From Candidatus Anstonellaceae archaeon (GTDB lineage Archaea; Micrarchaeota; Micrarchaeia; Anstonellales; Anstonellaceae): a stretch of 64,000 nt of DNA. This document shows, piece by piece, positions 2,630 through 58,087 of the stretch. Each line of letters starts with the position of its first letter. The stretch's first letter is position 1. A model generated the notes under the pieces. That model worked only from the letters and a program-made list of their open reading frames with translations, ran no database searches and had not been told where the DNA came from. The position numbers and the translations under genes were made by a program. Location: the NCBI GenBank assembly GCA_038891035.1, contig JAWAEW010000006.1, positions 2,221 to 66,220 of the forward strand. Direction: 5' to 3'.

Positions 2630-3091
2630 TTAGGAGTGGTATTTGCCAATCAGTGGCTTCATTCCGTATTGTGTTTGTGGGAGCCCGTTTGGAGTTGTGT
2701 AAGATATTCGTACATCATATTCGTATGTCCCACCTACAGAGCCAGCGCCCGCACCTGAAAGCGGAATTATCCTTTGGTCTCCAGATGCGAGTACTGTCGG
2801 AGTAGAATATGAAGCATTGCCAACTGTAATGTTGGTAATTGTAAGGGTGCCAGCTGCATCTCTGTTTACTATCAAGATGCTCCCATTTCCAGAAGAGTCA
2901 AACGAGTGCTCAAGAATTCCAAAAGGCATGGCTTCTCCGCGCCAGTATGCATTTGACTGCGTAATTTTTGCATCAGATGCAAGCCCTGGGAAAAACCCAA
3001 GAAGAGCTATTGACACCAGTGCAATTATCAAAACCACTGCAAGCAACACAAGATACTCAGTTGCACCTTGCCCTTTCATATGAATATTCAT
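2630..3091 (-). CDS. archaeal type IV pilin-like protein (class III signal peptide), putative major pilin
   Basis: N-terminus MNIHMKGQGATEYLVLLAVVLIIALVSIALLG = basic residue + G, Q at +1, then ~22 hydrophobic residues (prepilin peptidase substrate pattern); mature part beta-rich with N-x-S/T sequons (NITVGNASYS). Confidence 0.65.
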   Translation of the reverse strand: MNIHMKGQGATEYLVLLAVVLIIALVSIALLGFFPGLASDAKITQSNAYWRGEAMPFGILEHSFDSSGNGSILIVNRDAAGTLTITNITVGNASYSTPTVLASGDQRIIPLSGAGAGSVGGTYEYDVRISYTTPNGLPQTQYGMKPLIGKYHS

Positions 3092-4617: not shown

Positions 4618-4622
4618 TCCCT

Positions 4623-5430: not shown

Positions 5431-5434
5431 GTTT

Positions 5435-6400
5435 TCACTCCCATTCTATTGTTGCAGGTGGCTTACTCGTAACATCAAAAACCACGCGATTGACATATTT
5501 TTTCAACTCGCGTGTTATCCTATTTGCGATTGATTCCAGCACTGCCGGCGGAAGTGGTGAGGCTTTTGCAGTCATTCCGTCTATGCTTTCTACAGCACGT
5601 ATTACAACGGTGTAACCATAAGCGCGGGCATCCCCAAGCACCCCAACTGATTTCATTGGGAGAAGCACTGCAAAATATTGCCACGGAAGCTGGATTGTTC
5701 CTTCTGATGCAGCTTTTTCAACTTCTTCTTCAACAATTGCACAAGCTTGTCTGATTATTTCGATTTTTTCTTGCGTGATTGGTCCTAAGATTCGCACTGC
5801 CAGACCGGGTCCTGGAAAAGGCTGACGCTTACATATTTTTTCAGGCAAGCCAAGCAAGAAAGCTACTTTCCTTACTTCATCTTTGTAAAGCTCACGGAGA
5901 GGTTCTATAAGGAACATGCCCATCTTTTTTGGCAACCCACCTACATTGTGATGAGACTTAATAGTGTCTCTAAGACCTGCTCCAGATTCTATCCAGTCAG
6001 GAGCAATCGTGCCTTGCACTAAGAATTTTGCCTTTACCTTTTTTGCTTCTGCCTCAAAGACTTTGATGAAAAGCTTACCTATTATTTTTCGCTTTTTTTC
6101 CGGGTCGGATACACCTTTTAGTGTCGCAAGAAACTTTTGGCTTGCATCGATTATCTTGACATTCACACCTGCTTCGGCAAGAGATGATTTGACTTCTTCT
6201 GCTTCATTTTTTCTCATTAGACCGGTATCTACAAAAATACAATGGACTTTTTTACCCAAGGCTCTTGTCGCAAGGACTGCAGCCACTGATGAGTCTACTC
6301 CTCCCGAAACTGCAATTATTGCAGTTCCGTCCTTTGCCGATTTCTTGATTTCTTGAATTGCTTCTTGGATGAAAGCCTCAGGATCAAACATTCGTTTCAC
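5435..6400 (-). CDS. guaAB: GMP synthase, ATP pyrophosphatase subunit B
   Basis: PP-loop 'VSGGVDSS' and GMP-synthase C-terminal dimerisation domain ending 'ATIEWE'; 4-nt gap to subunit A. Confidence 0.85.
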
Positions 6401-7518
6401 CTTTTGTGCTTCTTGTGGTGTTGCTTTCTTCTAAGTAAAAGTAAAAATGCTGCTATTGCAAAGAAAAGTCCTGCGCCAAGCAAGGCAAAAATCAAATTGC
6501 TTTCAATATCGGACTTTAACCTATTTTCCTTTGTTGGCTCCTGCTGCTGTTGCTGTGGCTGGGTTTGGTTTATTGCCAAGCTGTCTTTGTCGTTTGAGAT
6601 TTTGGATTCAGACATTGGTTCTGTAGCTTCGTTTTCTATTATTAGCTCGTAAGATAGGTTCTGATATGAAAAAATATATTTTCCTGCTTCTGCTGCATTC
6701 AGATACGCTGTTCCATTTGAAGATGTAGTTAGAAATATTTGCCCTGATGGAGTTTCTGCCTGGATTTTTTCGCCTTCAAGAGGCTTGCTTCCATTGAGAA
6801 GCTGTAATGCAATAAGTGAGTGCGTTTTGTTTTCAGATGTGACAATTAAGGCAATTTTTGGCGGCTCTTGCGGCTTTGCTTGCTCAAGCACTACATTAAG
6901 CTGTGCAAAATCTGACAAATAAAGCTGTTGAATTTCCTCTTTTGGAATAAAGCCTTCTGCTTCAAATGCTATCCTATATTGCCCCTCTGGCAAAAAAGAA
7001 ATTAGGAAATATCCGTCCTTGTTTGGAATATTGTCCTTTTTGTGGTTGAGTCTTGCTATCACTTTTGAATCGGAGTACAATGTGATTGAAGAATTGGAAA
7101 AGTCTTTGGGTCCTTCTATTCTGCCCCAAATACCTGCATATGCGATCTGCTCGCGCATGATATAGGTGATGTTTCTATTCATATCTATCTGAACGAGATG
7201 GACGTGGGTGGGGTATCCACCTCTTTTCAGAATTACAAAATAGCTCCCAGGCAATACTTCAAATGTGGCAGTTCCGTCTTTTCCTGCTTTTGAAGAGGCA
7301 ATTTCTACTCCTTCGTGAAGGATGGAAATATTTGTTCCAACTGCAATTGTGTCAGGAGGGACAAGGACTTTTATTTGGAGAGTGTAGGAAGAAACCAAGG
7401 ATAGAAGGCAAAGCACTAAAGTCACCCATAATCTATTCACGAAACCACCTATCGAATCTAATTGTGCAACCAATAAAAGGCTACTGCCTCCAACATGCAA
7501 TAGTAATTGCCTCTGCAT
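6397..7518 (-). CDS. secreted surface protein with carboxypeptidase-regulatory-like beta domains, Q-rich linker and C-terminal TM anchor + basic tail
   Basis: hydrophobic signal-like segment [16 protein letters not shown] (true start may be internal GTG near 7440); C-term '[32 protein letters not shown]'; co-directional and directly downstream of four pilin-like genes. Confidence 0.5.
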
Positions 7519-7822
7519 GGCTGTTTCTCCAAACTGGAAAAGTAATGCTGGTCTTGCTGCCTCCTAAGTACGCGCAGGTTGAAAGCTCTTCTGCTTGAAA
7601 GCAGATGCCAGAAAGATTGGAGATAAGATGGAGCCTTTCGTTCAGAACTGCTTCATCTGAGAAAGATGAGGAATCGATTAGCACTTGCACGGCATCAAAG
7701 CACAGGAAAAGGTCTGGCTCGCTGGCGGTTTTGGCTTCAAAGGTATGAAGTAAAAGGGCAGCCTGCACTAAAAGGATAAATGAGGCTACTGCTTCTAATG
7801 ACATTGCAAATGCTTTTTTCAT
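7481..7822 (-). CDS. pilin-like protein with class III-type signal peptide
   Basis: Preferred start MKKAFAMSLEAVASFILLVQAALLL (KKA then hydrophobic stretch with E at +6); ORF track start 7882 overlaps upstream gene. Confidence 0.4.
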   Translation of the reverse strand: MKKAFAMSLEAVASFILLVQAALLLHTFEAKTASEPDLFLCFDAVQVLIDSSSFSDEAVLNERLHLISNLSGICFQAEELSTCAYLGGSKTSITFPVWRNSHAEAITIACWRQ

Positions 7823-8274
7823 GACACACACACCGTAAGAAGTGCAATTTTTCCTGAAAGAAAGGCAAGCCTTTTTGTGCAATAAGCTTGTTTCCCGTCA
7901 TTACCCGCAACCCAATCCATCATTGTTTCATCCTCAAAAGCAAGGGAAGCTTTGACTGATGACAGACCAAATGCATCTCTTATAGGCCTCAAATCAAAGT
8001 CTGTCTTGCCTTCATAAAGAGAATCCAAAAGGACATACGAAATCCTTATCGAAAGTAAAGTGTATGATACTGAATTTGAGTAATATGAGAAACTTTCTGA
8101 AGCAAAATAGAGAAGCTGTAGGAATGTCAAAAAGATGATGAGCGTTGAGAGGAACGCAATCGAGGCATCCAAAGAAAAAAACGCTTTAATGAAGTTTGAT
8201 TTGCACATAAAGCTTTCCCTCCGCATCCACTGAAGCGTTGTGAAGGAGCCTCTCACTGACATTTTTGTTGCCAC
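7819..8274 (-). CDS. pilin-like protein (class III-type signal peptide), start uncertain
   Basis: N-terminal region ...MCKSNFIKAFFSLDASIAFLSTLIIFLTFLQLLYF: basic residue + A followed by ~25 hydrophobic residues; several alternative in-frame starts (8262, 8226, 8208). Confidence 0.4.
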   Translation of the reverse strand: MATKMSVRGSFTTLQWMRRESFMCKSNFIKAFFSLDASIAFLSTLIIFLTFLQLLYFASESFSYYSNSVSYTLLSIRISYVLLDSLYEGKTDFDLRPIRDAFGLSSVKASLAFEDETMMDWVAGNDGKQAYCTKRLAFLSGKIALLTVCVS

Positions 8275-8533
8275 AGTGAAAAATTTGGCTCATATTTATG
8301 CAAAGCCACGAAAAGTCTTCATATGACTTTATGTGCGCCTTTGAAACGGCAGCAGTATCAAGCAAGAAAGCAGCTTTGGCAAGCTGGATTTTTTGGTAAT
8401 TTGCATTTATCTTTTGGGCTTCGCTTTCTACAAGATGATTTGCTGAAAGAGAAAGTATAGAGATGGCTAAAAGTAGGGCAAAAAAAGAGACAAGGGCTTC
8501 AATTGAGGATTGGCCACGAAATGTTGGCTGCAT
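8186..8533 (-). CDS. pilin-like protein with class III signal peptide
   Basis: MQPTFRGQSSIEALVSFFALLLAISILSLSA: RG|Q cleavage-type motif, E at +5, 20-residue hydrophobic helix. Confidence 0.55.
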   Translation of the reverse strand: MQPTFRGQSSIEALVSFFALLLAISILSLSANHLVESEAQKINANYQKIQLAKAAFLLDTAAVSKAHIKSYEDFSWLCINMSQIFHCGNKNVSERLLHNASVDAEGKLYVQIKLH

Positions 8534-9083
8534 TAAAACTTACCTCCTCTTCCGGAAGGCGAAATGCTGCACCTTGCCCTAAATGTTCTACAAAAATGGA
8601 AAAACCAATCGAAGGAAGATGAATACTTTGCTGGCTTAAATCTATATAGATTGACTTTAGGCATTCGCTGCTTGAGATGTGATGGGTGCTTTTTGGTAGG
8701 ACTGGTTCTTTGAGGCTTTCCATTTCTTCTGACACTAGTCGAATTTCATCGAAAGAGGGTTGGCCGCACCAAAGCTTCACCGAAAAACCTGCTTGTATTA
8801 TTTCTTGCTCAAGATTTATGAGTGCTTGGTGCACTTGCTTTTTTGCTTCCGCATATGAGTCAGTTCTGGCGGCAAAGGAAATTAAGATGCCTTTTTCTGC
8901 AGCTTCCGATGCTGCAGCATATATTGCTTTTCTGATGGCAAATGCCTCAAGCTCCACTAATTTATATTTCTCAACAGAAAATGCTGGCTTTTTTGCCTGA
9001 AGCGACAGTGAAGCAAAAGAAAGCAAAGTGAATAGGAAGATAGAGGCAACAAAAAATGTAAACAGACCTCTTGTCATCTCCAA
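8499..9083 (-). CDS. pilin-like protein with class III-type signal peptide
   Basis: MEMTRGLFTFFVASIFLFTLLSFASL: RG followed by hydrophobic helix; first gene of a four-gene overlapping operon. Confidence 0.45.
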   Translation of the reverse strand: MEMTRGLFTFFVASIFLFTLLSFASLSLQAKKPAFSVEKYKLVELEAFAIRKAIYAAASEAAEKGILISFAARTDSYAEAKKQVHQALINLEQEIIQAGFSVKLWCGQPSFDEIRLVSEEMESLKEPVLPKSTHHISSSECLKSIYIDLSQQSIHLPSIGFSIFVEHLGQGAAFRLPEEEVSFNAANISWPILN

Positions 9084-10127: not shown

Positions 10128-10173
10128 AAAACCACCCGAATATGTGTGAAATGGCAAAGAAAGTTAAAAAACA

Positions 10174-40300: not shown

Positions 40301-41408
40301 ACATTTGCTTTGCCTTTTCATACTGGGCCTCGGCTTGAATCAGCCCGGCTGCGACTCCCGAAAATTCTGGGCCGACAACCATTTTATCTGCTGCAAAAGC
40401 AGGCTCTCCGATTAGAACAATTTCTTCCTTTTTGAGCTCATTAATTTTTGCTGAAAGCTGCTGCAGTGAAGCTTCTGCTGCAAACTCTGTATTGAGATAT
40501 TCAGACTCCATTTCTTTTTTTGCTTGCGACAGTTCCTTGTAAATTTTGAGGAGAGACCATACTGCAGAATATTCTCCATCACCTGCAGTAATCTGAAGAT
40601 AGGATCCGAAGCTGATGTTTGAAAAATCAGGCATATGTGGCTTGGATGCAAAGTATTCAACTATAGCATCTGAAGATTTTTTCTGGCGTTGGCAGAAGTT
40701 TGAAAGAGAGGTGGATTTGGACTTTGCATGAAGGAAAGGATCTTTTGCTGCTCCAGAGTACTTTGGACTGCCTGCTCCAGCATGCTCCAGCTCGTCCAGA
40801 AGACTTTGGGCTAGAAAGGCTGCTTCTAAGGCTGCGGCATTTGCATTTTCATATGCATCAGCGGCTTTGCTGAGTGTGGCTGAGTAATAAATTGGGAAGT
40901 AGAATGAATAAACGGATACATCTGCAAGCCGTATAGCTTTGTAAGCCAAAGCTGCCTCAAAAAGAAATGGAAAGGCTGGAAGGTAAATAAAAGTAAATGA
41001 AAAGAGTGCGATGTTTTCCAAATTGTATTCCACTTCTTTTAATGCATCTTTTGCACTTTTCCAGTAATTGTAAGAAATTGCGTACGCCTCTTTTGCATCT
41101 GCGATTGCCTGAGAAGCCGCCTCCATCTTTACTTTTACTTTTTCAACTTCGCGCGAGTTTTCCAAGGAAAGAGAAGAGCGCAGCTTTTCCCATCCCACCA
41201 ACGAAACATTTGATATCTCTAGCGTTTTTGTAGAATTAAAAAACTCAAGCGAATAGAACTTTAGTCCGCCGAAGTCATAAATGTAAGGGTTTGAGTTAAT
41301 ATATGAAGAAAGAGTCCAAAACCTTTCAAGCGGTGATGGGTTTATGCACTCTGTCAGGCTGGCAAATGAAATGCAAGAAAGGAAAATGAAAAGCCAAGCC
41401 CATTTCAT
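37389..41408 (-). CDS. giant (about 1340 aa) secreted Ala-rich coiled-coil surface protein with C-terminal TM anchor
   Basis: N-term MKWAWLFIFLSCISFASL signal peptide; >1000 residues of Ala/Leu/Glu/Lys/Ser-rich predicted coiled coil with beta-rich central region; C-term 'AIGLGLASVIFILLAAWIFFEGSRKEKEKKQLPK'. Confidence 0.6.
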   Translation of the reverse strand: MKWAWLFIFLSCISFASLTECINPSPLERFWTLSSYINSNPYIYDFGGLKFYSLEFFNSTKTLEISNVSLVGWEKLRSSLSLENSREVEKVKVKMEAASQAIADAKEAYAISYNYWKSAKDALKEVEYNLENIALFSFTFIYLPAFPFLFEAALAYKAIRLADVSVYSFYFPIYYSATLSKAADAYENANAAALEAAFLAQSLLDELEHAGAGSPKYSGAAKDPFLHAKSKSTSLSNFCQRQKKSSDAIVEYFASKPHMPDFSNISFGSYLQITAGDGEYSAVWSLLKIYKELSQAKKEMESEYLNTEFAAEASLQQLSAKINELKKEEIVLIGEPAFAADKMVVGPEFSGVAAGLIQAEAQYEKAKQMYQEAQKAKSSKMKDYLAIAIKSAKDSEAIAANAILSLSKVHSAAVAAVDEEKKIAEKAISEAESKINFSVSSLEASSLSFQSLKALEEAKKAYAQASLEQTLGKKYKAYASAVESASRAILLAESSQIADTSNTVRQAFTQLKDLLNAAEKDGLDVSYYKEQLRELEGLFKSSLLLTAKEELHDKLLKLLYEQKNEVLLLLEAHYSHIEEDYCRLLQDAAVLRQQDAFALQEIDSIGLYFDGCNCKFEKAAGKLKEIQAELTKLKAKKQNRIPDFLSFMLSQNVKPLELIPPPVLGQTQKAQIALLTSNPSNFSSTAPISFSAKTSIPLYSSEATEGTLLDAFYKDGQTTIVVPSVSPQQSFFFRFEKEYSPTKKTSSFQKCKKAFPQEAEIELSISFSASSFLPVLFIQESTAGPSKEAYAHFSGTSYRLESVNVPHPQIYGKIERVPAGQHLLTIKYYLLEPFKVIKKESSFEKSSTAAKISYVVEVRDIAIGCEEATVLLHEPFSASNFSIVPIGTHKISKQNFVSFGGNTQASFSFELPQSSQSLQFLATFTINSLASAADEALLQAELQTTFSNKSSLQTILSQAKLLLQQNKTEEALSLLLLMPRSIEIPMHFEFESESAKIAQALSIANESINRLLSANATSKAAQLSSLIFALSDAKNQAQLLFDQGKAGEAVSTLRKSYNQFTSSIATLASKTASSTAQALSSMKSPPAQAQEQISEAFVLYTKGDFLSSFERAALAAVLIENSEKIEQLKLQAAAEEAEVLKAEFTKRKSAIEEKLLQYAQQYSSLSSQTKRKLSIMPSDAQEKLDAAQKRISAKQKDPFKVLSEVNLSLQEILQLEETIDKALLQLKSSAQSSLQVAQLAVEEASGSAREDEVVQLKQELSKSEEFFEAGLYADSLVSSEKAIRTANAILSRKPQLDIKAIGLGLASVIFILLAAWIFFEGSRKEKEKKQLPKANEPQL

Positions 41409-41422
41409 ATTAAATTCGCCGA

Positions 41423-42055
41423 TCATACAAGCGGAGAGAGGATGCGCACATCTACTTTTCCGCCCGTTTTCTCTTCTACAGCCAGCTTGAATTTTTCTGG
41501 GTCTGCTTTAAGTTCTTTCAGATAGTTGTAGTGGATTGGGATTACGATTTTTGGCATTATTGCTGCCGCTGCTTGGGCAGCTTCAATCTCATTCATAGTG
41601 TAAGTTCCACCTATTGGCAAAAGCGCAATGTCGCATTTATAGCTTGACATTTCAGGAATGAAGTCTGTGTCACCTGCAAAATACACGGATGCCGATTTGA
41701 ACCTTACGATATAGCCTGCTCCTGCACCTTTTGGATGGAAAGGTTTGTTTATGTTGTATGCATGAACAGCTTCGATTGTTGCGTTTCCCACATTTTCTTT
41801 TTGGCCTATTTCAATTACCCTGCACGGGAGCTTGCATCCATGCCCTATCAGAACTGTGCTTGGTTTAGTGATGGATGGCGCTTGAACACAGTGATCAAAA
41901 TGGCCGTGGGAGTAAAGAATGACATCCGCAGGCTTAGCTCCTTTTGGAAGGACAAACGGGTCAATGTATATGGCCATGCCTTCTGCTTCAATCAAAACAG
42001 ATGCATGACCAAGCCAAGTAATCTTAACACCTGAAAAAGAGGTGCTGCTTGCCAT
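41423..42055 (-). CDS. MBL-fold metal-dependent hydrolase
   Basis: 'ILYSHGHFDHC' metal-binding motif; 210 aa. Confidence 0.7.
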   Translation of the reverse strand: MASSTSFSGVKITWLGHASVLIEAEGMAIYIDPFVLPKGAKPADVILYSHGHFDHCVQAPSITKPSTVLIGHGCKLPCRVIEIGQKENVGNATIEAVHAYNINKPFHPKGAGAGYIVRFKSASVYFAGDTDFIPEMSSYKCDIALLPIGGTYTMNEIEAAQAAAAIMPKIVIPIHYNYLKELKADPEKFKLAVEEKTGGKVDVRILSPLV

Positions 42056-45546: not shown

Positions 45547-47949
45547 ATGGAGATTGTGACAAGAAGGGCAATGCTTTTAGATGCGGATTATACGATAGTT
45601 GAAGGCAGGACTGTTGTTAGGCTGTTGATGAAAGGAAAACGTTTTTTTCGGCTTTATGACTATTATTTGCCTTATTTTTACTTGGATGCCCCAAAAAATG
45701 CTGAAGAGCTGATAAGAAAGGTTCGCGTTCAAAATGAAGGAAGACAAGTCACTCCAGTAAAACTTGAATGGGTTAAAAAAAGCGTTTTTGGCCAGGAGCG
45801 TGACATCTGGAAAGTGTACTGCGAGAGGCCTTCGGATGTGCCGAAAATAAGCAAAGCACTGCCTTATCCTTCTTATGAAAACGCAATTCCATTCGGAAGG
45901 AGATATTTGATTGATAAGGGGCTCTCTCCATTTACTACACTAGTTTACAAAAGGAAGGGGAAGTTTCTCATTGAGATAAAGAAAATTCTTGACAGAAAGG
46001 TCCCGCTTAGGACCATGTCTTTTGACATAGAAACCTACAATCCGCAGGGAACTCCACGGCCCGACCAAGACGAAGTGATTATGATAAGCTATGAAATTGG
46101 GCATACGGGGGAAAGAAAGGTAATCACCAGCAAAGACGTCAAAAGAGATTTTGCAATCGTATGCAAGGATGAAAGGCAGATGATTGAAAAGTTTCTTCAA
46201 GTGATCAGGGAAAATGACATTGAAGTGCTGTTTGGTTACAACAGCACTGTGTTTGATTTGCCATATCTTAAGGCAAGAGCAGATGCTAACGGATTGAATT
46301 TTGGGATTGGACGGGATGGTGGACCTTTTAGGATGAGAAAGCATGGGATAAGGAATGTTGCAAAAATCGTAGGCAGGATACATGTGGATCTTTATCCACT
46401 TGTCCGATTTATGGGTTTTATAGGAGCATTCAAGGTGAGCAAATATAGCTTGGAAAATGCGTATGAAGAACTAACTGGAAAAAAGAAGTTGATGGTTCAG
46501 AAACTGGATATTTGGAAGATGTGGGAGGACGAAAATCTTGTAGGCAAGCTTGCAGACTATTCGCTTTTTGATGCGCAGGCAACCATGGAGATAGGTAAGA
46601 TTTTGCTTCCACTGGAAATAGAAATGAGTAATTTGACTCGACTGCCTCTTTTTGACACAGTAAATGCAACGGCTGGCCAGCTTGTCGAATCTTTGTTGAT
46701 GCACAAAAGCACACAGAATAATGCAATAATTCCTAACAAGCCTGAGGATGCAGTTGCGCATGAAAGAGAGCTTGGTCCAATAAAGGGGGCTTTTGTCAAA
46801 ATCCCGCAGCCCGGGATTTATGAGAATCTAGTAGTGTTTGACTTTAGAGGTCTTTACCCTTCTATTATCACCTCACACAATATTGACCCTTTTACCTTGA
46901 ATCCACCAAGCTCGGTTCCGGACTCTGACTGCTATATTGCACCGAATGGAAGTCGCTTTTTGAAGAGCCCGAAAGGACTTATTCCTATGGTGCTTGAGGA
47001 ATTGATAGAGATGAGAAGCAAGCTCAAAAAGCGGTTGAAAGAGATTCAAAAAGACACACCGGAATACGAAATGCTTTTTGCACGTGTGCAGTCGCTAAAA
47101 ATACTTGCAAATTCATATTATGGATATCTGGCTTATCCGCGCTCAAGATGGTATTCCAGAGAATGTGGAGAGGCAGTGACGGCCTGGGGAAGGCATTACA
47201 TTCAAGATACTATAAGAAAAGCAACGGAAGCGGGTTTCGAAGTGCTATACAGTGATACTGACTCTGTTTTTCTTTTGCTTGGGAAAAGAATGAGAGAGGA
47301 TGCTCTTTCCTTTATGGAAAGCATCAATAGGCAGTTGCCTAAGGATATGGAATTGGAGCTTGAGGGATTTTATCCGAGGGGGCTTTTTGTAACTAAGAAA
47401 AATGCAGAAGGCGAAGGAGCCAAGAAAAAATATGCTTTAATAGGGGAGGATGGAAGGATAAAAATACGTGGCTTTGAGCTTGTGAGACGCGATTGGTCGA
47501 ATATAGCAAAGACAACACAAAAAAGAGTGCTTGAGGCAATTTTGAAGCATGGTAGCAAGGAAATGGCTGTTAAGATTGTGAAAGAGACGATCGAACAGCT
47601 GAAAAAAGGAAATGTTCCGATCGATGATCTGGTAATTTATACACAAATACGTAAAGACCCTCGGAAATACGATGTTAAATCTCCTGAGCTTTCTGCAGCA
47701 CAAAAGGCAATAGCTGCAGGCATTCCGATAGAAAAGGGGAGTGTAATTGGATATGTGATTACAAGAAGAGGGACGAGCATCTCGGAGAAAGCAACCCTTG
47801 CAGAGCTTGCAACAGATTATGATCCAAACTATTATATACAAAACCAGGTGCTTCCTGCAGTAATGAAGATATTGCAGGAGCTAGGATACAGCGAGGATGA
47901 TTTGAAATTTGGCGGGAAGCAGACCGGCCTCTCCTCTTTCTTAGAATAA
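45547..47949 (+). CDS. polB: DNA polymerase, family B
   Basis: exo motifs 'FDIET' and 'YNSTVFDLPYL', polymerase motifs 'SYYGY' region and 'YSDTDSVFL'; 800 aa, no intein. Confidence 0.9.
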   Translation: MEIVTRRAMLLDADYTIVEGRTVVRLLMKGKRFFRLYDYYLPYFYLDAPKNAEELIRKVRVQNEGRQVTPVKLEWVKKSVFGQERDIWKVYCERPSDVPKISKALPYPSYENAIPFGRRYLIDKGLSPFTTLVYKRKGKFLIEIKKILDRKVPLRTMSFDIETYNPQGTPRPDQDEVIMISYEIGHTGERKVITSKDVKRDFAIVCKDERQMIEKFLQVIRENDIEVLFGYNSTVFDLPYLKARADANGLNFGIGRDGGPFRMRKHGIRNVAKIVGRIHVDLYPLVRFMGFIGAFKVSKYSLENAYEELTGKKKLMVQKLDIWKMWEDENLVGKLADYSLFDAQATMEIGKILLPLEIEMSNLTRLPLFDTVNATAGQLVESLLMHKSTQNNAIIPNKPEDAVAHERELGPIKGAFVKIPQPGIYENLVVFDFRGLYPSIITSHNIDPFTLNPPSSVPDSDCYIAPNGSRFLKSPKGLIPMVLEELIEMRSKLKKRLKEIQKDTPEYEMLFARVQSLKILANSYYGYLAYPRSRWYSRECGEAVTAWGRHYIQDTIRKATEAGFEVLYSDTDSVFLLLGKRMREDALSFMESINRQLPKDMELELEGFYPRGLFVTKKNAEGEGAKKKYALIGEDGRIKIRGFELVRRDWSNIAKTTQKRVLEAILKHGSKEMAVKIVKETIEQLKKGNVPIDDLVIYTQIRKDPRKYDVKSPELSAAQKAIAAGIPIEKGSVIGYVITRRGTSISEKATLAELATDYDPNYYIQNQVLPAVMKILQELGYSEDDLKFGGKQTGLSSFLE

Positions 47950-48813
47950 ATATGTCAAGATGTCCCCAAAGAGCAAGGCAAAAAGAAGACCAAGCAAAAG
48001 ATGTGGGAGAAAAAATGGCATTTTTGTATAGACAATCACTTCTCTTATACGGGCTGCTTTAAGCTTGGCAATTTGTTCTTTTGTAATCACAGGCTTAAGC
48101 GAAAGCTTTCTTACAAGTTGCTGATTCATAAGCTCAAGCGCAAGCACGTCTTCCTCTTGCAGCAAAGAGACTTTCACTCTTTGTGCCATTGCTTCCTTGA
48201 TTTCTTTTTTGAAGAATGAGAAAAAAAGCAAGCTTACGAAAAGGAAAGCGATCAACAAAATAAATGCTTGAGAGATTCTGCCTGGCAACATGAACAAAGC
48301 GATGTTGAAGGCGGCAAATGACAAGGATAACGCAGCAAGCCCAACAAATTTTTCAAGCGAAAAGGTGATTTTGCCTTTCTTTGCAAGCTCTGTGACATAT
48401 GGAAGAAAACGTAAAAGCATATGCAAAATGAAAAATATGCTTGCCGGGACAAGCACTGAGATGATAAATGGATATGGTGCGGTTTTTCCTTCTGCAAAAA
48501 AGGGCTGTGGAGCATATGGCAAGGCAATAGCAATTGCTGAAAGCACAAACATGTCTGCGCCCCCGATTTGACCTGCTTTGTAAAGGAGGAAAGAGAGAGC
48601 AAAAATTGCGGCACCAAACGCAAAAGCATGAAAGGTGGCTGGACTGAAAAATATAAAGTTCAAAAATATCGCAGCCGCTAAAAAAGCGTAGACCAAGTTG
48701 TTTGGAACCCATTTGTTGTTAAATAAGTCAAAATAAGCAGATGCTGCAGTGAACAAAACAGAAACAATTACCCTAATTTCAATGCCTGGAATTTGGCTTG
48801 GCGAAGAAAACAT
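47941..48813 (-). CDS. prepilin/preflagellin peptidase (A24 family, PibD/FlaK/EppA-like)
   Basis: 290 aa polytopic membrane protein with the two catalytic Asp contexts 'SAYFDLFNNKWVPN' and 'GQIGGADMFVL'. Confidence 0.6.
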   Translation of the reverse strand: MFSSPSQIPGIEIRVIVSVLFTAASAYFDLFNNKWVPNNLVYAFLAAAIFLNFIFFSPATFHAFAFGAAIFALSFLLYKAGQIGGADMFVLSAIAIALPYAPQPFFAEGKTAPYPFIISVLVPASIFFILHMLLRFLPYVTELAKKGKITFSLEKFVGLAALSLSFAAFNIALFMLPGRISQAFILLIAFLFVSLLFFSFFKKEIKEAMAQRVKVSLLQEEDVLALELMNQQLVRKLSLKPVITKEQIAKLKAARIREVIVYTKMPFFLPHLLLGLLFALLFGDILTYLF

Positions 48814-48843: not shown

Positions 48844-50022
48844 TCAAACGTCAACTGTTTGGAGGAAGTAGTCATGCACTGCTATGAGGTCTAGTTCTTC
48901 ACATACTGCATTGCATTCAAGTACAGCAGAAATGCTTGGCTTGGTCCTCCCCCTATCCGAAGAGATGAATTCCTTTATGTATGTGCCGGCTTCTGCGACG
49001 ATGTGTAGCTTAAGTTTTTCATTTGGAAGGCAGGCTGCAGAAATTGAAAATATCTTTCTTTTTCTTTCCAAATCAGACCTTCTTGAGAGTACCCGAAGTG
49101 GCGTTTGCTGGGTTAGAAGCACCCCGGACAAACCTTCGACTTTCTTTGCATCTTGTTGACCTAAAGGGCGGTCGGCAGCCACAATCGCAATATATTCTTT
49201 TGTAAAATGTGAATTGCACACGAGATCAATGAAATTTTTTTTCACTTGGCGAAGCCCTATTGCCTTGATTGGTGATTCTGATGGGAGCGATATTTCCGAA
49301 ATGCTTCTTTTCTTCGGAGCTACCAACTCGAGCACAAAAGGCCTTCCGGTTCCTATGCAGCGGACATCGACATCTTCCCTTCCGCTTGCATGCAAAATGC
49401 AATCTTGCGCCTGCAGCCCTTGAACAAAAGGCTTTCCAAGTTCCTCTTCTATTGAAGGATAGTTTTTGCCTGCCCAACTGCACTTGTTGCAGCCTTTTCC
49501 CTTGCAAAAATTACAGTGCCATCTGCTTTGGCAGAAATTCCTTGAAAGCTTCAAGTAATGTCCGAATATATACAAGTTTGAAGGAGATGCTTTGGCTTCT
49601 TTAGTCTGGAAATTGAACTCAAAAACTGCATCAGGAAATCTTGGATCATGTGATTTGGAAGAATGTCTTTGTATAAGGCTTATCAGTTTTGCATTTATGA
49701 CGTTCTTTAAAGAACTGAATTGGCCGGGTTGGCAAAAATCCCATATTTGCTGCTCTGCTATGAGGAAACTTTTTGGCACTGAAGACGAAACTGAAAAGCT
49801 TTCCCACTCAAACTCTTTTGAAGAGGAGATTGCATGCGAAACCATTTGAGGAATCTGGCTGAAAGCACCTTTACATATGAAGCAACTAACAGGCTCTGGA
49901 GCACTTTGGACAAAAGGAAGGTGCGCAAAACACTCCCTGCATACTGAGCAAAGACGGAATGCCATATTCAAAGCACCTAAGCAAGACGAGCAAGTGCAAC
50001 GGCAGACATTTAAATCTTGCAA
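48844..50022 (-). CDS. pus10: tRNA pseudouridine(54/55) synthase Pus10
   Basis: N-terminal Cys-rich zinc ribbon, central Cys cluster 'CNFCKGKGCNKC', catalytic 'GREDVDVRCIGTGRPF' motif. Confidence 0.7.
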   Translation of the reverse strand: MQDLNVCRCTCSSCLGALNMAFRLCSVCRECFAHLPFVQSAPEPVSCFICKGAFSQIPQMVSHAISSSKEFEWESFSVSSSVPKSFLIAEQQIWDFCQPGQFSSLKNVINAKLISLIQRHSSKSHDPRFPDAVFEFNFQTKEAKASPSNLYIFGHYLKLSRNFCQSRWHCNFCKGKGCNKCSWAGKNYPSIEEELGKPFVQGLQAQDCILHASGREDVDVRCIGTGRPFVLELVAPKKRSISEISLPSESPIKAIGLRQVKKNFIDLVCNSHFTKEYIAIVAADRPLGQQDAKKVEGLSGVLLTQQTPLRVLSRRSDLERKRKIFSISAACLPNEKLKLHIVAEAGTYIKEFISSDRGRTKPSISAVLECNAVCEELDLIAVHDYFLQTVDV

Positions 50023-53690: not shown

Positions 53691-53906
53691 ATGGGACAAA
53701 AAGTTGGAACTGAAAAGATACAGCGCGAGGAGGGCTACCTCTATTATATCGGGAAGGATGGATATGTTTGGAAAGCGCCGATGAAACACAACAAGCGCGG
53801 CAAAAAGGCGCGTGTTGGCACTGAAAAGATAACCAAGCAAGAAGGATATATGTACTACCTTGGCAAGGACGGATACGTCTATAAGGCAAAGCTGAAGAAT
53901 GCTTAA
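53691..53906 (+). CDS. small lysine-rich protein made of two tandem ~33-aa repeats
   Basis: GGAGGTG Shine-Dalgarno 7 nt upstream of ATG, TTTATAAATT TATA-like box at ~53660; repeats (V)GTEKI-x-EEGY-x-YY-x-GKDGYV-x-KA. Confidence 0.5.
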   Translation: MGQKVGTEKIQREEGYLYYIGKDGYVWKAPMKHNKRGKKARVGTEKITKQEGYMYYLGKDGYVYKAKLKNA

Positions 53907-54003: not shown

Positions 54004-56328
54004 ATGGGCTGCAGAGCAGAATATAGCGGAAGCAGGCTGGTGATGGATTGCCCGACCTGCGGGCTTGGACTTTCTACTCCTCAATGCATAAACTCGCATC
54101 TTAGAGTTCTTTCTACTCTTCCTCGACCTTGGCGCACAATGCGCTATGAGGAAGAGATGGTAGTTGACTTGGATGAGGAAAAAAGCGCAATACTGCAAGA
54201 ATATGCAGGCCTTATTAGACAAGTTGAAGCCATAATGCTCAATCCGAAAGTTTATGGTAGGCCTGAGGATGATTATTATTTGCAGCGGAAAAAACTGCTC
54301 AAGGACTTTTATGAGTATATGTTCATGAATCCGTTGGTAGCTGCACAAGTGCTCAAAGAATATAATGAGCCTTATCCTCAAAAGGCAGTTTTTGTAGAGG
54401 GGTATCGTACATTCCAAGCTTGGGTAAATGGGATATTGGATGCCTATACGAAGTCTTCACTATACATTCTTTGCCAAAAGACAGGTGACTTGAGGGCTGC
54501 TTTCCTTGCACTTCTTGGCCTCAAAAGCGTGCTTTTCCTGCAAAACATAATTCTGTCGGTCCCAAAAGACGCAGTTGAAATAGAAGGTCCTGATGCAAAT
54601 TATGATCTTCCTTATGGGCTAAAAGTAAAGATTTATGATCTGCCTTCTGGTGAAGCGAGGCTTTACACAATACACGACCCGGTAATAGAAAACCTTTCCC
54701 CTCAATTGCAGGAGATGCTTAAGAACGCCATACAGGAAGGTATGAAGGAACTGAGGCAGGTTGAAGATTATACAACCTTATTTGACGAAAAAAGTAGAGA
54801 ATATGCGCAACGTTTCATAGACAAGGCTACGCTTGAAAATATCCCTATTACTCAAAAGGAAGCTGTTGCGATGGGAAGGGAGGCAGCATGTTGGGTGGTT
54901 GGTCTTGGCTCGCCTATAGAAAATATGGCCTTGGACAAAGACAACATAACAGATATTTACATCGATGCCGAGAATTCGCCAATATATATTGAACATGCGA
55001 AATTTGGCCTCTGCCACACCCTCTGGAGATACAACAGGGAAATGCTTGAGAATGTCTTCAAAAACATCATCGCATCTGCGCCAGGGGCGCGGAAATTTGA
55101 TAAAAACACTCCTGTGATTGATGTAGTTCTAAGTCGCCTTGCGATGAGGTGCCATCTGCAGCGCCCACCTGCGACCTTTGGCGAGCTTCAAGCTGCTTTG
55201 AGATTGATGAGGGATCAGCCGTTTACTTATCCAATGTACCTTAAGCTCAAATCGATGAGCCCGTTTTTTGCAGGCTATGACGACGTTATGGTTTCGCTTG
55301 GTTGCTCTGAAGCAGTGCTTGGGCTAAAAGGAGTAGGCAAAACCGCATTTACCTCAGCCAAGATTGCAGCAATAGGAACAAAAAAGAGGATATTGCCCAT
55401 TCAAGACATAGAGGAAATTCCTACTCGAGCATATCGAAAAAGAGGGTTCCACATAGGTGCTGTGCAAGTGCAGTCTTCTGAGATAGAGGATGTCGGCAAA
55501 ACACCTGAACTTGACTTGGTTTCGATGACGAATGCGGCTTTGCGTATGGGAGACGCTTGTGTCATAATCAACGAAATACGTTCCAGGCTTGCAATACAGG
55601 GTGTCATCAACATGCTCAATACTCAGCCCGGAATTTTCCTGCTTTATAACTTGCATGCACAGTCCCTTAAAGATGTGCAAGACCGGCTTGAGCTTGTATT
55701 TGGTGTCCCTGCCGCTTCAATGTTTTCAACAGACAGATATACTTTTCTCAAAAAAGTAAGGTTTGGCAGGAAAAGTAGAATATACAGAATGGTCGGATTC
55801 CAATACGAAACGGATATCTCTGAGCATAAATTTGTTCAGGTATTTTTGCTTGACAGAGCTGAAAGCGTAGAAAAGACGCGCCTTAGATGCTTGTTTTTGG
55901 ATATGCCCGAAGCCGAGGCAGAATCGCTTGCTGATGTAGATTTGGGCAAGCTTGCAAAAAATATGAAGATAAAGTTTTTGCCTCCTGCATTGGTCAGAAG
56001 ATCTGATGAAACCGGTCTTTCCCCGCAACAGTATATAATGGAGGCTTTCTTCAAAGGTAAAATGTATTCTCAGATTGCAGAATGTGCGGATAAATACAAC
56101 CATCCACAATTTGTTGAGCTGGATTTTGTATTGAGGTGCAACACTGCTGCAAACAATCTGCTAAGAAAGCTTGAAAGCGAAGAAAATGAAATTGACTGGA
56201 AGGCTGCAGATAAAGAGTGGCAAAGGATATTTGAGCAATTAGTTCAAAAAGAGCTTGCAGAAGCAAAGCTGGAAGAAGAAAAAAAGAAAGGAGGAAAAAG
56301 ACCTAAAGCCGAGACGCAAACTCCTTGA
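54004..56328 (+). CDS. atypical large secretion/pilus-assembly ATPase of the VirB11/FlaI/PilT superfamily with N-terminal Zn-ribbon extension
   Basis: 774 aa; 'ITDIYIDAENSPIYIEHAKFGL' (T2SS-E N-domain), Walker A 'GLKGVGKT', Asp box 'RILPIQDIEEIP', Walker B/His-box region 'AALRMGDACVIINEIRSRLAIQGVINMLNTQPG...LHAQSLKD'; N-term 'CPTCG'; ~300-aa N- and ~170-aa C-extensions. Confidence 0.6.
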   Translation: MGCRAEYSGSRLVMDCPTCGLGLSTPQCINSHLRVLSTLPRPWRTMRYEEEMVVDLDEEKSAILQEYAGLIRQVEAIMLNPKVYGRPEDDYYLQRKKLLKDFYEYMFMNPLVAAQVLKEYNEPYPQKAVFVEGYRTFQAWVNGILDAYTKSSLYILCQKTGDLRAAFLALLGLKSVLFLQNIILSVPKDAVEIEGPDANYDLPYGLKVKIYDLPSGEARLYTIHDPVIENLSPQLQEMLKNAIQEGMKELRQVEDYTTLFDEKSREYAQRFIDKATLENIPITQKEAVAMGREAACWVVGLGSPIENMALDKDNITDIYIDAENSPIYIEHAKFGLCHTLWRYNREMLENVFKNIIASAPGARKFDKNTPVIDVVLSRLAMRCHLQRPPATFGELQAALRLMRDQPFTYPMYLKLKSMSPFFAGYDDVMVSLGCSEAVLGLKGVGKTAFTSAKIAAIGTKKRILPIQDIEEIPTRAYRKRGFHIGAVQVQSSEIEDVGKTPELDLVSMTNAALRMGDACVIINEIRSRLAIQGVINMLNTQPGIFLLYNLHAQSLKDVQDRLELVFGVPAASMFSTDRYTFLKKVRFGRKSRIYRMVGFQYETDISEHKFVQVFLLDRAESVEKTRLRCLFLDMPEAEAESLADVDLGKLAKNMKIKFLPPALVRRSDETGLSPQQYIMEAFFKGKMYSQIAECADKYNHPQFVELDFVLRCNTAANNLLRKLESEENEIDWKAADKEWQRIFEQLVQKELAEAKLEEEKKKGGKRPKAETQTP

Positions 56329-57616
56329 GGAAGTCTTCCAACCTGTCTGCTGGGATTGTTGCACCTGCTGCAATGTTGTGCCCTCCTCCACTTCCGCCAA
56401 CTGCGGCACATGCTTGAGAAAGAACTACTCCTAAGTTAAGTCCTGCCTCCACTAATTCTTTGCTTCCCCGAGTGGAAATTTTTATCATACCGGGGCTTTC
56501 ATCTGCAATTGCAAGAACTGGCTTGCTTTTACCACCTGGGTAAAGCATGCCTGCAATCACTCCAATTATAGTATCTTTTATTGCTCCCCGCCCGTCCAAA
56601 AAGAAAAATTTCCCAAAATCCTGTGTATTCTTTAAAGCAAAGGCAAGGCCTTCTCTTAAGTTTTTCCTGTGCTGTGCAAGCAAAATCTTCGCCTTTTCAT
56701 ACGCATTTTCTTTTGAAAGACATACTGCAACCCCAAGCCCATACTGGCCGTTTCTGCCGCAAGCATTCAATAAGGTTGAGAATTCTGAGGCATCTGCAAG
56801 CTCAGTTTTCTGTGGCTTTTTTGGGAAGATGTAGACTTCTCCTACGAGCTTTTCTGCTGCCTGTGGGGAGATCCTTGCAGAAAGCAAATCTGCAAGCGCG
56901 GATACCAGCTTTTGCTTCTCATTCTCACTCAAATCAGAATAACATCTCCACTCTGAGTTGTCTTTCAGCGGAATATTCAGCTGTGAAAGGAAAGAGGCAC
57001 ATGCTTCTTCATTTCCTGTGAGGCCTGGGAGATAAGGGTCGTCTGCATATGAAAGAAGTTGAATCAATGGTCTGCTGTTTCTTCCAAAAAGCCGCAAGTC
57101 TATTTTGGCTTCTGCCAACCCTGCCTGCTGGGCCTCGTGAAGCATTATACGGTTGAGGCTTTGTAGGGGATATTGGATGTCTCCTACTGCGCCAGTTATG
57201 CCAATCTCTGGCGCTTGTCTGAAAACAAAATAAGCGCATGCGGAGGCTGAAGCTTCGCTTCCGCCGTCAAAACCAAAGAAATGAGGATTTGCTTGAAGAT
57301 GGGCTTTTGATTGGGGCTGGTGGTGGTCGATTATTATGATGTTTGAAGAAAGCTGATCGATAGAAGGTGTGCTACTTCCTAAATCAACAAAAATTAAATT
57401 TGGCTCATTTTTGAGGCTAGAGATTATTTGTTCGTCAAGCTTCTTTACAGTTAGCATTCTGTATTTTGCCTTGCGCAATTCAAACCATGAAGCAACTATT
57501 GAACCGGAAGAAATTCCATCGCAGTCATAATGATGGACTATGAGCGGGTCTTGCATTCTTTCTGCAACTTCCAGTGCTTCACTGCAGCGCTCAAAGAAGG
57601 CATTTTGGTTTTTCAT
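56303..57616 (-). CDS. DHH-family phosphoesterase, archaeal RecJ/GAN-like nuclease
   Basis: DHH motifs 'HHYDCDGISS', 'IIIDHH', DHHA1-type C-terminal domain 'GGGHNIAAG'. Confidence 0.7.
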   Translation of the reverse strand: MKNQNAFFERCSEALEVAERMQDPLIVHHYDCDGISSGSIVASWFELRKAKYRMLTVKKLDEQIISSLKNEPNLIFVDLGSSTPSIDQLSSNIIIIDHHQPQSKAHLQANPHFFGFDGGSEASASACAYFVFRQAPEIGITGAVGDIQYPLQSLNRIMLHEAQQAGLAEAKIDLRLFGRNSRPLIQLLSYADDPYLPGLTGNEEACASFLSQLNIPLKDNSEWRCYSDLSENEKQKLVSALADLLSARISPQAAEKLVGEVYIFPKKPQKTELADASEFSTLLNACGRNGQYGLGVAVCLSKENAYEKAKILLAQHRKNLREGLAFALKNTQDFGKFFFLDGRGAIKDTIIGVIAGMLYPGGKSKPVLAIADESPGMIKISTRGSKELVEAGLNLGVVLSQACAAVGGSGGGHNIAAGATIPADRLEDFLKEFASRL

Positions 57617-57667
57617 ACAGCAAGAAATAGCAGAAGACGTATAAAAGGCATTGTGGAAAACGAAACC

Positions 57668-58087
57668 ATGGAATTTGAGCATGCGTCAGATGTCCAGCAG
57701 AAGGTTGAGGAGATTGTATCTGTTTTGTCTTCAAGCTCAAAAGTAGCTGAATTTAGGCATATTAATCAATTCAGAATAATTTGCATGCGATCCAGAGGTT
57801 CAAAGGCAAATGCTTATGCAAGGATTTGGAACCTGCCTATGATCTGGCAAAAGGCACTTTCGGTTGGAGCATTTTACATAATAGAAGTAATAAGCGATCA
57901 TTATGATTCTCTTGATGAAGAGCAAAAAGAGAAAGTCCTTTTACACGAACTTATGCATATTCCAAAGACATTTTCAGGTGCGCTTCGGCCTCATAATGGC
58001 AAAGTAAAAATTAACCGTCAAACTGTGGAGAAGCTTTATAGGATATATCTAAAAGAAAAAACGGCTGAAGCGGTGGGTTCAAAATGA
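57668..58087 (+). CDS. putative Zn-metallopeptidase (HExxH; SprT/DUF45-like)
   Basis: 'VLLHELMHI' zinc-binding motif in 139-aa protein. Confidence 0.45.
   Translation: MEFEHASDVQQKVEEIVSVLSSSSKVAEFRHINQFRIICMRSRGSKANAYARIWNLPMIWQKALSVGAFYIIEVISDHYDSLDEEQKEKVLLHELMHIPKTFSGALRPHNGKVKINRQTVEKLYRIYLKEKTAEAVGSK

Follow-up and report, generated by a model that had tools for sequence, protein, structure and literature searches.

A 290 amino acid open reading frame at positions 47941..48813 on the (-) strand of a 64,000-nucleotide stretch of DNA (termed the window), taken from a MAG of Candidatus Anstonellaceae (Micrarchaeota, DPANN), is named "hypothetical" in the deposited record. The question raised by this locus is whether it encodes a prepilin peptidase for the pilin-like genes at 2.6–9.1 kb, which are 39–45 kb apart from it, and whether the window holds a full type IV filament system, as a prior reading of the DNA without database searches (termed the sequence-only reading) had proposed. 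The evidence presented below (the ATG-start open reading frame, a Pfam match, a PDB profile match, a Foldseek search and the names of orthologues) shows that the protein belongs to the A24 family. It is very probably one of the archaeal FlaK/PibD-type class III signal peptidases (MEROPS A24).

Gene neighborhood

The neighbors are those given in the sequence-only reading, i.e. polB and pus10. The family-B DNA polymerase gene polB (45547-47949, (+) strand) is convergent with the peptidase gene, and its 3′ end overlaps that gene by 9 nt. The Pus10 (tRNA pseudouridine synthase) gene (48844..50022, (-) strand; Pfam Pus10_C, 191.9 bits) lies 30 nt upstream of the peptidase gene and shares its strand; the two are probably co-transcribed. 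The gene order pus10-peptidase-polB is kept in two relatives. Two relatives also show the peptidase gene away from the pilin locus, with both on the same contig. The setting of the peptidase gene is a housekeeping neighborhood.

Family membership and catalytic residues

A Pfam search with the 290 aa sequence shows a match to Peptidase_A24 (PF01478) at aa positions 17–105 (E = 1.2e-7, 32.6 bits, where the gathering cut-off (GA) is 26.5 bits), encompassing profile positions 2–90 of 104. Most homologues of the peptidase carry PF01478 as well. Besides PF01478, the only Pfam match at E <= 1 is a weak one with Arc_PepC_II (PF06847) at aa positions 243–285 (14.5 bits, below the cut-off), and an NCBIfam search yielded no matching model.

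Both aspartate motifs that had been noticed in the sequence are present exactly as quoted. The peptidase reads AYF-D29-L-F-N-N-K-W-V-P-N38 and Q-I-G84-G-A-D87-M-F. The codon of the first catalytic aspartate, Asp29 in the motif D-L-F-N-N-K-W-V-P-N, is at 48727..48729 ((-) strand), and the residue is predicted to be where helix 1 ends on the cytoplasmic side. It is invariant in 30/30 aligned sequences. The second catalytic aspartate is in G84-G85-A86-D87, a GxHyD (GxGD-type) active-site motif at 48553..48564 ((-) strand) and at the predicted start of helix 4; the Asp87 codon is 48553-48555. Homologues collected number 86–192, with 30%–79% identity to the peptidase, and an alignment of 30 homologue sequences (29%–79% identity) shows D29, G81, Q82, G84 and D87 to be invariant. 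Because the Pfam A24 score is above the cut-off and these residues are invariant across homologues, the motifs are not chance occurrences.

A profile made from the N-terminal domain has FlaK (3S0X_A, E = 2.3e-4) as its sole match among 177,635 PDB sequences. The alignment pairs D29 and D87 of the peptidase with D18 and D79, the catalytic aspartates of FlaK (D18 is chain residue D25 in the alignment, a 7-residue N-terminal tag being assumed). This bears out the proposal that the protein is an A24 prepilin peptidase with Asp at the catalytic positions. In FlaK, D18 and D79 are on helices alpha1 and alpha4 and are essential (PMC10117864). The segment I-G-G-G-D (D79) of FlaK is aligned to GGAD of the peptidase. 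The alignment begins at FlaK residue 9, approximately residue 13 of the peptidase. The catalytic core is at the extreme N-terminus, with no extra N-terminal TM segments and no methyltransferase region. Searches of PDB sequences with the full-length sequence and with the full-length family profile do not reach FlaK, and on sequence comparison the likeness to characterized enzymes is remote.

When 5.8 billion proteins were searched with an iterated profile, the 120 matches listed held only Micrarchaeia orthologues, with no bridge to characterized FlaK, PibD or EppA sequences among these 120. Several orthologues are already named "prepilin peptidase", and the JGI auto-annotation of some is "Flp pilus assembly protein protease CpaA". 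The "hypothetical" protein can safely be renamed as a FlaK/PibD-type prepilin peptidase.

Predicted structure

The AF2 model of the peptidase (pLDDT 91.4, pTM 0.87) displays a FlaK-like polytopic fold with eight helices, at aa positions 11–31, 38–54, 58–79, 85–97, 116–145, 153–175, 182–200 and 269–289. D29 is placed on helix 1 (11–31) and D87 on helix 4, as in FlaK. A hydropathy scan has peaks that support 7–8 helices, with K/R-rich predicted cytoplasmic loops, and the polytopic character given in the sequence-only reading is thereby retained. Relatives show 6–8 helices by crude hydropathy. A Foldseek search of PDB gives FlaK as the best match (prob 0.98, TM 0.32/0.48, 16% identity), with an E-value of only 0.11.

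The FlaK/PibD subtype has a total of 5–6 TM helices, whereas eight are predicted here; these helix counts suggest a variant specific to Micrarchaeia that has two extra helices. The AF2 secondary structure also shows a predicted cytoplasmic alpha/beta domain at aa positions 201–265 (48019..48213, (-) strand), which follows helix 7 and precedes the last TM helix. This segment has a K/R count of 14 and contains an invariant E221-D222-x-x-A225.

Comparison with known prepilin peptidases

FlaK/ArlK of Methanococcus maripaludis (PDB 3S0X; MEROPS A24B) is similar to the peptidase in its Asp pair, which is in register on helices 1 and 4, and in the GxGD-type motif common to both, GGGD in FlaK and GGAD in the peptidase. 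FlaK has 6 TM helices vs. the eight predicted, and the identity is about 16%. A C-terminal soluble domain and a final TM helix are found in FlaK and are likewise predicted in the peptidase. FlaK is archaellin-specific, and no archaellin gene was found in the window.

The GGAD tetrapeptide is identical to that of PibD from S. acidocaldarius, where the active site is G75-G76-A77-D78 and the catalytic pair is D21/D78 (PMC10117864). PibD (S. acidocaldarius/S. solfataricus) is a broad-range enzyme and is compared by description only. The Asp spacing is 58 residues in the peptidase and 57 in PibD (D21/D78, D23/D80), and PibD is described with 5–6 TM segments vs. the eight predicted helices here. The PibD gene, like the peptidase gene, is away from pilus/archaellum operons, and the peptidase presumably serves all class III substrates. 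FlaK and PibD genes are typically outside the operon, and PibD processes sugar-binding proteins besides pilins (PMC4187195).

"Ca. Mancarchaeum acidiphilum" Mia14, a cultured member of the same phylum, has one FlaK-like peptidase, MIA14_0570, that is unlinked to two pilus loci (PMC5498576). Likened by description, MIA14_0570 is of the same annotation class (arCOG02298 FlaK/PulO) and is likewise unlinked. The TadC and ATPase loci of Mia14 are known, whereas the comparison for the Anstonellaceae MAG is based on one contig.

EppA of M. maripaludis (arCOG02300) is pilin-specific and is also compared by description. It is larger, with four TM segments more than FlaK, i.e. a 9–10-TM form (PMC4858521; PMC4343526), and its gene is frequently part of the pilin locus. 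Unlike EppA, the 290 aa peptidase opens with the catalytic helix and is encoded 39–45 kb from the pilins, which speaks against the EppA subtype. EppA substrates have a negatively charged +5 residue (PMC4187195), and the Q(+1)...E(+5) substrate signature is also present in the two canonical prepilins of the window.

The bacterial enzymes PilD/GspO/CpaA (A24A) have the Pfam family and the di-aspartyl mechanism in common with the peptidase. They differ in that no N-terminal methyltransferase/DiS_P_DiS region was detected in the peptidase (Pfam, E <= 1).

Pilin-like open reading frames

Five pilin-like genes are present on the (-) strand, and the synteny of all five is kept across approximately 18 Micrarchaeota species. 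The putative major pilin (2630..3091), found by Pfam Class_IIIsignal and a regex scan, has the canonical class III signal peptide M-N-I-H-M-K-G↓Q-G-A-T-E(+5)-Y-L-V-L (the arrow marks the predicted cleavage site). Its Class_IIIsignal match has 20.1 bits and E = 6e-4, under the GA of 23.7. Orthologues in relatives are 98%, 82%, 75% and 53%–60% identical; a search of PDB sequences with the putative major pilin gave no match. The second canonical signal, M-Q-P-T-F-R-G↓Q-S-S-I-E(+5)-A-L, was detected by the regex scan in a small pilin-like protein (8186..8533), whose gene in relatives keeps its place downstream of an M42 peptidase. The window therefore holds candidate substrates whose signals read K/R-G↓Q-x-[SA]-x-E, and these are conserved in relatives.

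The other three pilin-like genes have atypical signals. The protein at 8499..9083 begins with M-E-M-T-R-G↓L-F-T-F-F, has no acidic residue there, and shows 23%–64% identity to its syntenic relatives. The protein at 7819..8208 (probable start 8208) has I-K-A-F-F-S-L-D-A-S-I-A-F, where its orthologue in the relative termed L022 has R-Q-A-F-W-S-I-D-A-A-F. The protein at 7481..7822 (probable start 7822) has M-K-K-A-F-A-M-S-L-E-A-V, and the L022 orthologue has M-R-G-F-L-F-S-L-E-A-A-F. Of the substrates named in the sequence-only reading, pilin-like proteins are indeed encoded 39–45 kb away, but a canonical class III signal is present in only 2/5; 3/5 are without the canonical cleavage motif.

A surface protein that has carboxypeptidase-regulatory-like domains and is anchored by a C-terminal TM segment (6397..7518, (-) strand; Pfam CarboxypepD_reg, 42.1 bits) is always encoded after the four small pilin-like genes (synteny, approximately 18 species).

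The ATPase and the assembly platform

The ATPase noted at 54 kb (54004..56328, (+) strand) appears to belong to the secretion-ATPase superfamily. It is a divergent 774 aa protein (CpaF/GspE/FlaI-like) and a candidate filament motor. PDB sequence matches are with CpaF (E = 8e-11), A. fulgidus GspE (9e-6) and FlaI (2e-3). Pfam gives no match, T2SSE included, even at E <= 10. The sequence displays a Walker A motif, G-L-K-G-V-G-K-T, and I-I-N-E-I-R in the Walker B region, and its L-H-A-Q-S is aligned with L-H-A-N-S of CpaF (His-box region). Relatives are named "ATPase, T2SS/T4P/T4SS family". The approximately 770 aa CpaF-like ATPase is very highly conserved, with 57%–93% identity across Micrarchaeia.

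The ATPase gene adjoins pilin genes in L022, L029 and L024, and in some relatives it is an immediate neighbor of the major pilin and of the minor-pilin cluster. In L022 the major pilin orthologue directly follows the ATPase gene, and the pilin, the four small genes and the secretion-family ATPase form one same-strand locus. A homologue of the major pilin in L031 is near a canonical T2SSE + 2x T2SSF locus.

The filament system had been called complete. This is not upheld: a Pfam search of essentially all window open reading frames of >=100 aa, in which thresholds were relaxed for those lacking annotation, found no T2SSF (PF00482)/TadC/FlaJ platform, and no platform gene is present in the 4 kb beyond each window end. 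A hydropathy scan for polytopic open reading frames gave no platform candidate. As a positive control, Pfam T2SSF scores in L031 are 55.5 and 43.8 bits. Since Pfam readily detects platform genes in another micrarchaeon, the negative result is not due to low sensitivity. A 332 aa membrane protein at 34158-35156 was considered as a platform and rejected; it has no PDB or Pfam relative and does not resemble the TadC of L030 and L031.

In the relatives' loci examined, a platform gene was never seen next to the ATPase, and in the distant relatives L004 and L005 the ATPase neighbors are soluble proteins, not platforms. There is a small chance that the peptidase represents a distinct Micrarchaeia A24 sub-family (eight helices, E-D motif in the cytoplasmic domain) that serves a filament system in which the pilin and minor-pilin genes go together with the CpaF-like ATPase and not with a TadC/FlaJ platform. 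If no platform partners the ATPase anywhere in these genomes, DPANN archaea would have a type IV filament machine that departs from the canonical one.

Function of the peptidase

It is extremely unlikely that the protein is not a prepilin peptidase and is instead some other polytopic protein with chance D...P-N and G-G-A-D strings, for example an A22 protease of the presenilin/SPP type or a transporter. The low identity to FlaK (16%, Foldseek) and the lack of an NCBIfam match are compatible with this, but the Pfam A24 score exceeds the gathering threshold, the family shows no variation at the motif residues, and FlaK, with its two Asp in register, is the sole PDB match of the domain profile. 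In Foldseek, presenilin homologues and transporters are no better than E = 1.5. Together these results effectively refute a presenilin/SPP (A22) identity. Within the A24 family, the window substrate motifs KG↓QGATE and RG↓QSSIE, with Gln in position +1 and Glu in position +5, display the EppA substrate signature; the protein might then be a dedicated EppA-like pilin-specific peptidase, with a second A24 enzyme elsewhere that handles other class III substrates. This is unlikely, as helix 1 already carries the first catalytic Asp and the FlaK alignment runs from residue 9, which is the FlaK/PibD layout, whereas EppA is the 9–10-TM form (PMC4858521; PMC4343526). In addition, the single peptidase of the micrarchaeon Mia14 is assigned to arCOG02298 FlaK/PulO, and no second A24 gene was found in the window.

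An active A24 enzyme might also have non-filament surface proteins (binding proteins, adhesins) as its main clients, in which case the pilin-like genes would encode unrelated membrane proteins. PibD also processes sugar-binding proteins (PMC4187195), 3/5 of the pilin candidates are atypical, and a platform gene is absent from the window. The probability of this is nevertheless very low: the major pilin candidate matches Class_IIIsignal (E = 6e-4, below the cut-off), its homologue in L031 is near the T2SSE + 2x T2SSF locus, and the L022 pilin, four small genes and secretion-family ATPase are in one same-strand locus.

As a FlaK/PibD-type prepilin peptidase, the protein would be a di-aspartyl membrane protease of the GxGD/GxHyD type, with D29 (cytoplasmic end of TM1) and D87 (start of TM4) facing the cytoplasmic membrane surface. 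Prepilins may be bound via the hydrophobic N-terminal helix, and the short basic leader would be removed after K/R-G, e.g. MNIHMKG↓QGATEY. The helix would stay on the mature protein and permit polymerization into a type IV-like filament. We infer that the enzyme is active and is the sole one of its type in the genome. Like PibD, it probably serves all class III-signal proteins that the cell encodes, at whatever locus; its putative clients would include the major pilin (2.6 kb) and the four small pilin-like proteins (7.5–9.1 kb).

The dispersal of the pilus system proposed in the sequence-only reading is real, but it is no peculiarity, as an unlinked FlaK/PibD is the archaeal norm (PMC4187195; Mia14, PMC5498576). 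Because a peptidase far from the pilins is the normal archaeal arrangement, the finding is correct but ordinary. It has little significance past annotation, and the unlinked peptidase layout raises no new question. Type IV pili are believed to bring DPANN archaea into contact with their hosts. The enzyme and its likely substrates are therefore concrete targets for expression and proteomic studies in Anstonellaceae. Type IV pili have been reported for Anstonellales MAGs (PMC8561730).

A prepilin peptidase of the A24 family

The open reading frame at positions 47941–48813 (reverse strand) has an ATG start and encodes a strongly hydrophobic sequence of 290 aa. An exact protein match on a 66-kb contig carries the record name [quoted passage not shown], which places the window in a Micrarchaeota (DPANN) MAG. 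The sequence-only reading took it for an A24 prepilin peptidase on the basis of two aspartate motifs, and both are found as described. Asp29 (codon 48727–48729, reverse strand) lies within F-D29-L-F-N-N-K-W-V-P-N38 and Asp87 (codon 48553–48555, reverse strand) within I-G84-G-A-D87-M-F.

The Pfam family Peptidase_A24 matches aa positions 17–105 with 32.6 bits (gathering score 26.5, E-value = 1.2e-7), and positions 243–285 resemble, below threshold, the last part of the Arc_PepC_II model ("Archaeal Peptidase A24 C-terminus Type II"); no NCBIfam model matches the protein. Among 5.8 billion proteins, homologues number 86 by sequence search and 192 by profile. Among the matches listed, all that carry an organism name are from Micrarchaeota/Micrarchaeia, and several have been annotated as "prepilin peptidase", as "A24 family peptidase" or as "Flp pilus assembly protein protease CpaA". 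D29, G81, Q82, G84 and D87 are invariant in an alignment of 30 sequences (down to 29% identity), as are P99, P115, E221, D222, A225, P266, F268 and P270.

Neither the full-length sequence nor the full-length family profile matched a solved structure. A profile of the N-terminal domain (aa positions 8–112, 17 sequences), searched against 177,635 PDB sequences, gave exactly one match, FlaK of M. maripaludis (3S0X_A, E-value = 2.3e-4). This alignment places the family sequence "..aayyD.." opposite FlaK chain residue D25, and "GQlGgaD" opposite "G-IGGGD", ending at chain residue D86. D25 and D86 are 61 residues apart, the exact spacing of the essential residues D18 and D79; judging from the numbering, a 7-residue N-terminal tag on the crystallised protein would explain the offset. 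D29 and D87 therefore pair with the two aspartates of FlaK, the correspondence by which the proposal was to be checked.

In FlaK, D18 is on helix alpha1 and D79, part of the GXGD motif, is on alpha4; the motif in PibD of S. acidocaldarius is "actually GGAD" (G75, G76, A77, D78), and the enzyme is still active when A77 is swapped for another non-polar residue, hence the new name GxHyD (PMC10117864). Thus GGAD is no degenerate form, since an enzyme of proven activity carries it. Two variants, GGGD and GAAD, occur in the present family, each in a single member. With a Pfam match above threshold, invariant aspartates and the FlaK profile alignment, the protein is an A24 prepilin peptidase whose two catalytic aspartates are in place.

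Predicted fold

An AlphaFold2 model (30-sequence alignment; pLDDT 91.4, pTM 0.87) shows helices at positions 11–31, 38–54, 58–79, 85–97, 116–145, 153–175 and 182–200, followed by a mixed alpha/beta segment (201–265) and a last helix (269–289). As in FlaK, helix 1 carries D29 and helix 4 starts with D87. K/R-rich segments at 146–152 and 201–268 fit a topology in which both aspartates would face the cytoplasm. FlaK has six helices (PMC4985597), whereas the Micrarchaeia clade apparently has two more, inserted ahead of its cytoplasmic domain. These helices, together with an invariant E-D cytoplasmic motif, are mildly unusual; the clade is a lineage variant and not a different kind of enzyme.

Gene neighbourhood and dispersal

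The gene is indeed wedged between polB and pus10. The family-B DNA polymerase gene (45547–47949, forward strand) is convergent with it, and pus10 (48844–50022, reverse strand) is on the same strand, ending 30 nt upstream. At their 3′ ends, polB and the peptidase gene share 9 nt (47941–47949); the corresponding overlap is 9 nt in one relative (L001) and 4 nt in another (L003), a very tight packing that leaves no room for a terminator. The rest of the window is rich in housekeeping genes (SRP54, PFK, GAPDH, SUF, GatDE, Cdc6, PyrBI and others).

The pus10-peptidase-polB order recurs in GCA_038887295.1 and GCA_964392435.1. The peptidase-pilin layout is stable, with a spacing of ~40–45 kb to the M42/pilin locus kept on the same contigs of these two relatives. 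In a distant micrarchaeon the peptidase gene is located among glycosyltransferase genes.

The pilus genes are dispersed, as had been suggested, with the peptidase ~40 kb from the pilins, but this is not remarkable, since FlaK and PibD are "typically located outside the operon" and in M. maripaludis the pilin locus is separate from the ATPase/platform cluster (PMC4187195). Type IV pili have already been reported for Anstonellales MAGs (PMC8561730). The peptidase thus adds an uncharacterised member to an established enzyme family, and its genomic arrangement is also of a familiar type.

Candidate pilin substrates

A class III signal motif scan of all open reading frames in the window gives two canonical signal peptides. 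One belongs to the major pilin candidate (2630–3091, reverse strand; MNIHMKG/QGATEYLVLL), with a Pfam Class_IIIsignal match just below the cut-off (E-value = 6e-4), the other to a small protein (8186–8533, reverse strand; MQPTFRG/QSSIEALV). Three other small genes show a short basic stretch and then a hydrophobic helix, with atypical junctions: 8499–9083 (M-E-M-T-R-G-L-F-T-F-F), 7819–8208 (I-K-A-F-F-S-L-D-A) and 7481–7822 (K-K-A-F-A-M-S-L-E-A).

A tblastn survey of 80 loci, each retrieved through its copy of the adjacent M42 aminopeptidase gene, shows the four small genes and a surface protein (6397–7518) in the same order after M42 in ~18 Micrarchaeota species. These five are fast-evolving, with 23%–46% identity once the closest relative is set aside; conservation is much higher for the major pilin candidate (98, 82, 75 and 53%–60% identity). 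The pilin-like genes are real genes and behave like a major-pilin/minor-pilin set; their products are presumably processed by the peptidase.

The M42 gene (9087–10157, reverse strand) is on the same strand as the pilin genes in Micrarchaeota loci, always between the major pilin side (with the ATPase, where present) and the four small genes. This may reflect either a functional tie to the filament genes or mere synteny.

Two surface proteins, 3214–4482 (forward strand) and 6397–7518 (reverse strand), have Ig-like/carboxypeptidase-regulatory-like domains and a C-terminal transmembrane anchor followed by a K/R-rich tail. Their genes lie on either side of the pilin genes and are conserved together with these in relatives, which makes the two proteins candidates for adhesins or envelope anchors.

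The 774-aa ATPase

The 774-aa protein at 54004–56328 (forward strand), a probable member of the secretion ATPase superfamily, has no Pfam match even at E ≤ 10. It aligns with CpaF (E-value = 8e-11), A. fulgidus GspE (9e-6) and FlaI (2e-3). G-L-K-G-V-G-K-T and I-I-N-E-I-R lie opposite the Walker A and Walker B regions of CpaF, and L-H-A-Q-S opposite its L-H-A-N-S. The N-terminus contains cysteines (C-P-T-C...C).

Across Micrarchaeia the conservation of the ATPase far exceeds that of the peptidase and of the pilins. Two relatives whose peptidases show 79% and 53% identity have ATPases that are 93% and 80% identical to that of the window, and identity across the class is 57%–65% (57%–93% with close relatives included). 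In the window and these two relatives it is solitary, between a DHH phosphoesterase and PFK/SRP54; in other Micrarchaeia (L022, L029, L024) it is directly upstream of the pilin locus. At L022 the ATPase (1894–4194), the major pilin "MALMRAQGATEYLVLLAV..." (4199–4825), M42 (4869–5918) and four small genes (5922–7551) follow on one strand; L029 (ATPase at 6563–8863) and L024 have a similar order.

This adjacency supports the earlier view of the ATPase as a partner of the pilins. No platform gene is beside it, in the window or in six other genomes examined. A highly conserved, Pfam-invisible ATPase associated with pilins and never with a platform gene is mildly unusual.

A basic protein of 71–73 aa is kept just upstream in the window (53691–53906, forward strand) and three relatives (L001 4902–5117, L003 6046–6261, L022 55–276), and may thus be a partner of the ATPase. 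It consists of two copies of G-[TS]-E-K-I-x-x-x-x-G-[YF]-[LM]-Y-Y-[IL]-G-K-D-G-Y-V, with no transmembrane segment and no Pfam family. A PF18894 "putative phage metallopeptidase" protein (57530–58087, forward strand; L001 724–1143, L003 1536–2027, L004 15230–15637) is found again and again a few kb from the ATPase, in several genomes of Micrarchaeota whose neighbourhoods otherwise differ.

The platform gene and other membrane proteins

The window supports the proposed "complete but scattered" toolkit only in part. Peptidase, pilin-like genes and ATPase are present at scattered sites, but neither the open reading frames of the window nor the 4 kb past either end yielded a T2SSF/TadC/FlaJ gene. 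This is not a problem of sensitivity, since a textbook locus was detected in a more distant micrarchaeon, L031, with a T2SSE ATPase (112 bits) and a pair of T2SSF proteins (55.5 and 43.8 bits). Some 2 kb further along, beyond an unrelated gene, is a pilin with a class III signal that shares 35% identity with the major pilin of the window. The canonical loci (L031 3878–7457 and 9559–10029; L030 13132–14585) combine a T2SSE ATPase of 578 aa with two T2SSF (TadB/TadC-like) genes and a pilin bearing a class III signal (33%–35% identical to the major pilin of the window), and display the expected appearance of the missing platform.

The cultured micrarchaeon Mia14 has a CpaF-family ATPase with two TadC (MIA14_0170–0173), a FlaI-like ATPase with TadC (MIA14_0252–0253) and an additional lone CpaF-family ATPase, MIA14_0940 (PMC5498576). 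Most simply, the Anstonellaceae genome would be expected to have a canonical ATPase/TadC pair at another site.

Two adjacent unannotated polytopic membrane proteins are encoded at 34158–35156 (332 aa) and 35157–35675 (172 aa), both on the reverse strand. The 332-aa protein is without similarity to the TadC proteins of L030/L031. Its homologue in a distant micrarchaeon (L005 4024–5031, E-value = 1e-21) is ~3 kb from the large ATPase, near a DUF87/HerA-like ATPase.

A 1345-aa protein (37389–41426, reverse strand) belongs to no Pfam family and has same-position relatives of 1339 and 1379 aa (L001 17371–20873, L003 18977–20891). It has an N-terminal signal-like segment, long coiled-coil/Ala-rich stretches and a C-terminal transmembrane anchor, and may be a protein of the cell surface or of the S-layer type.
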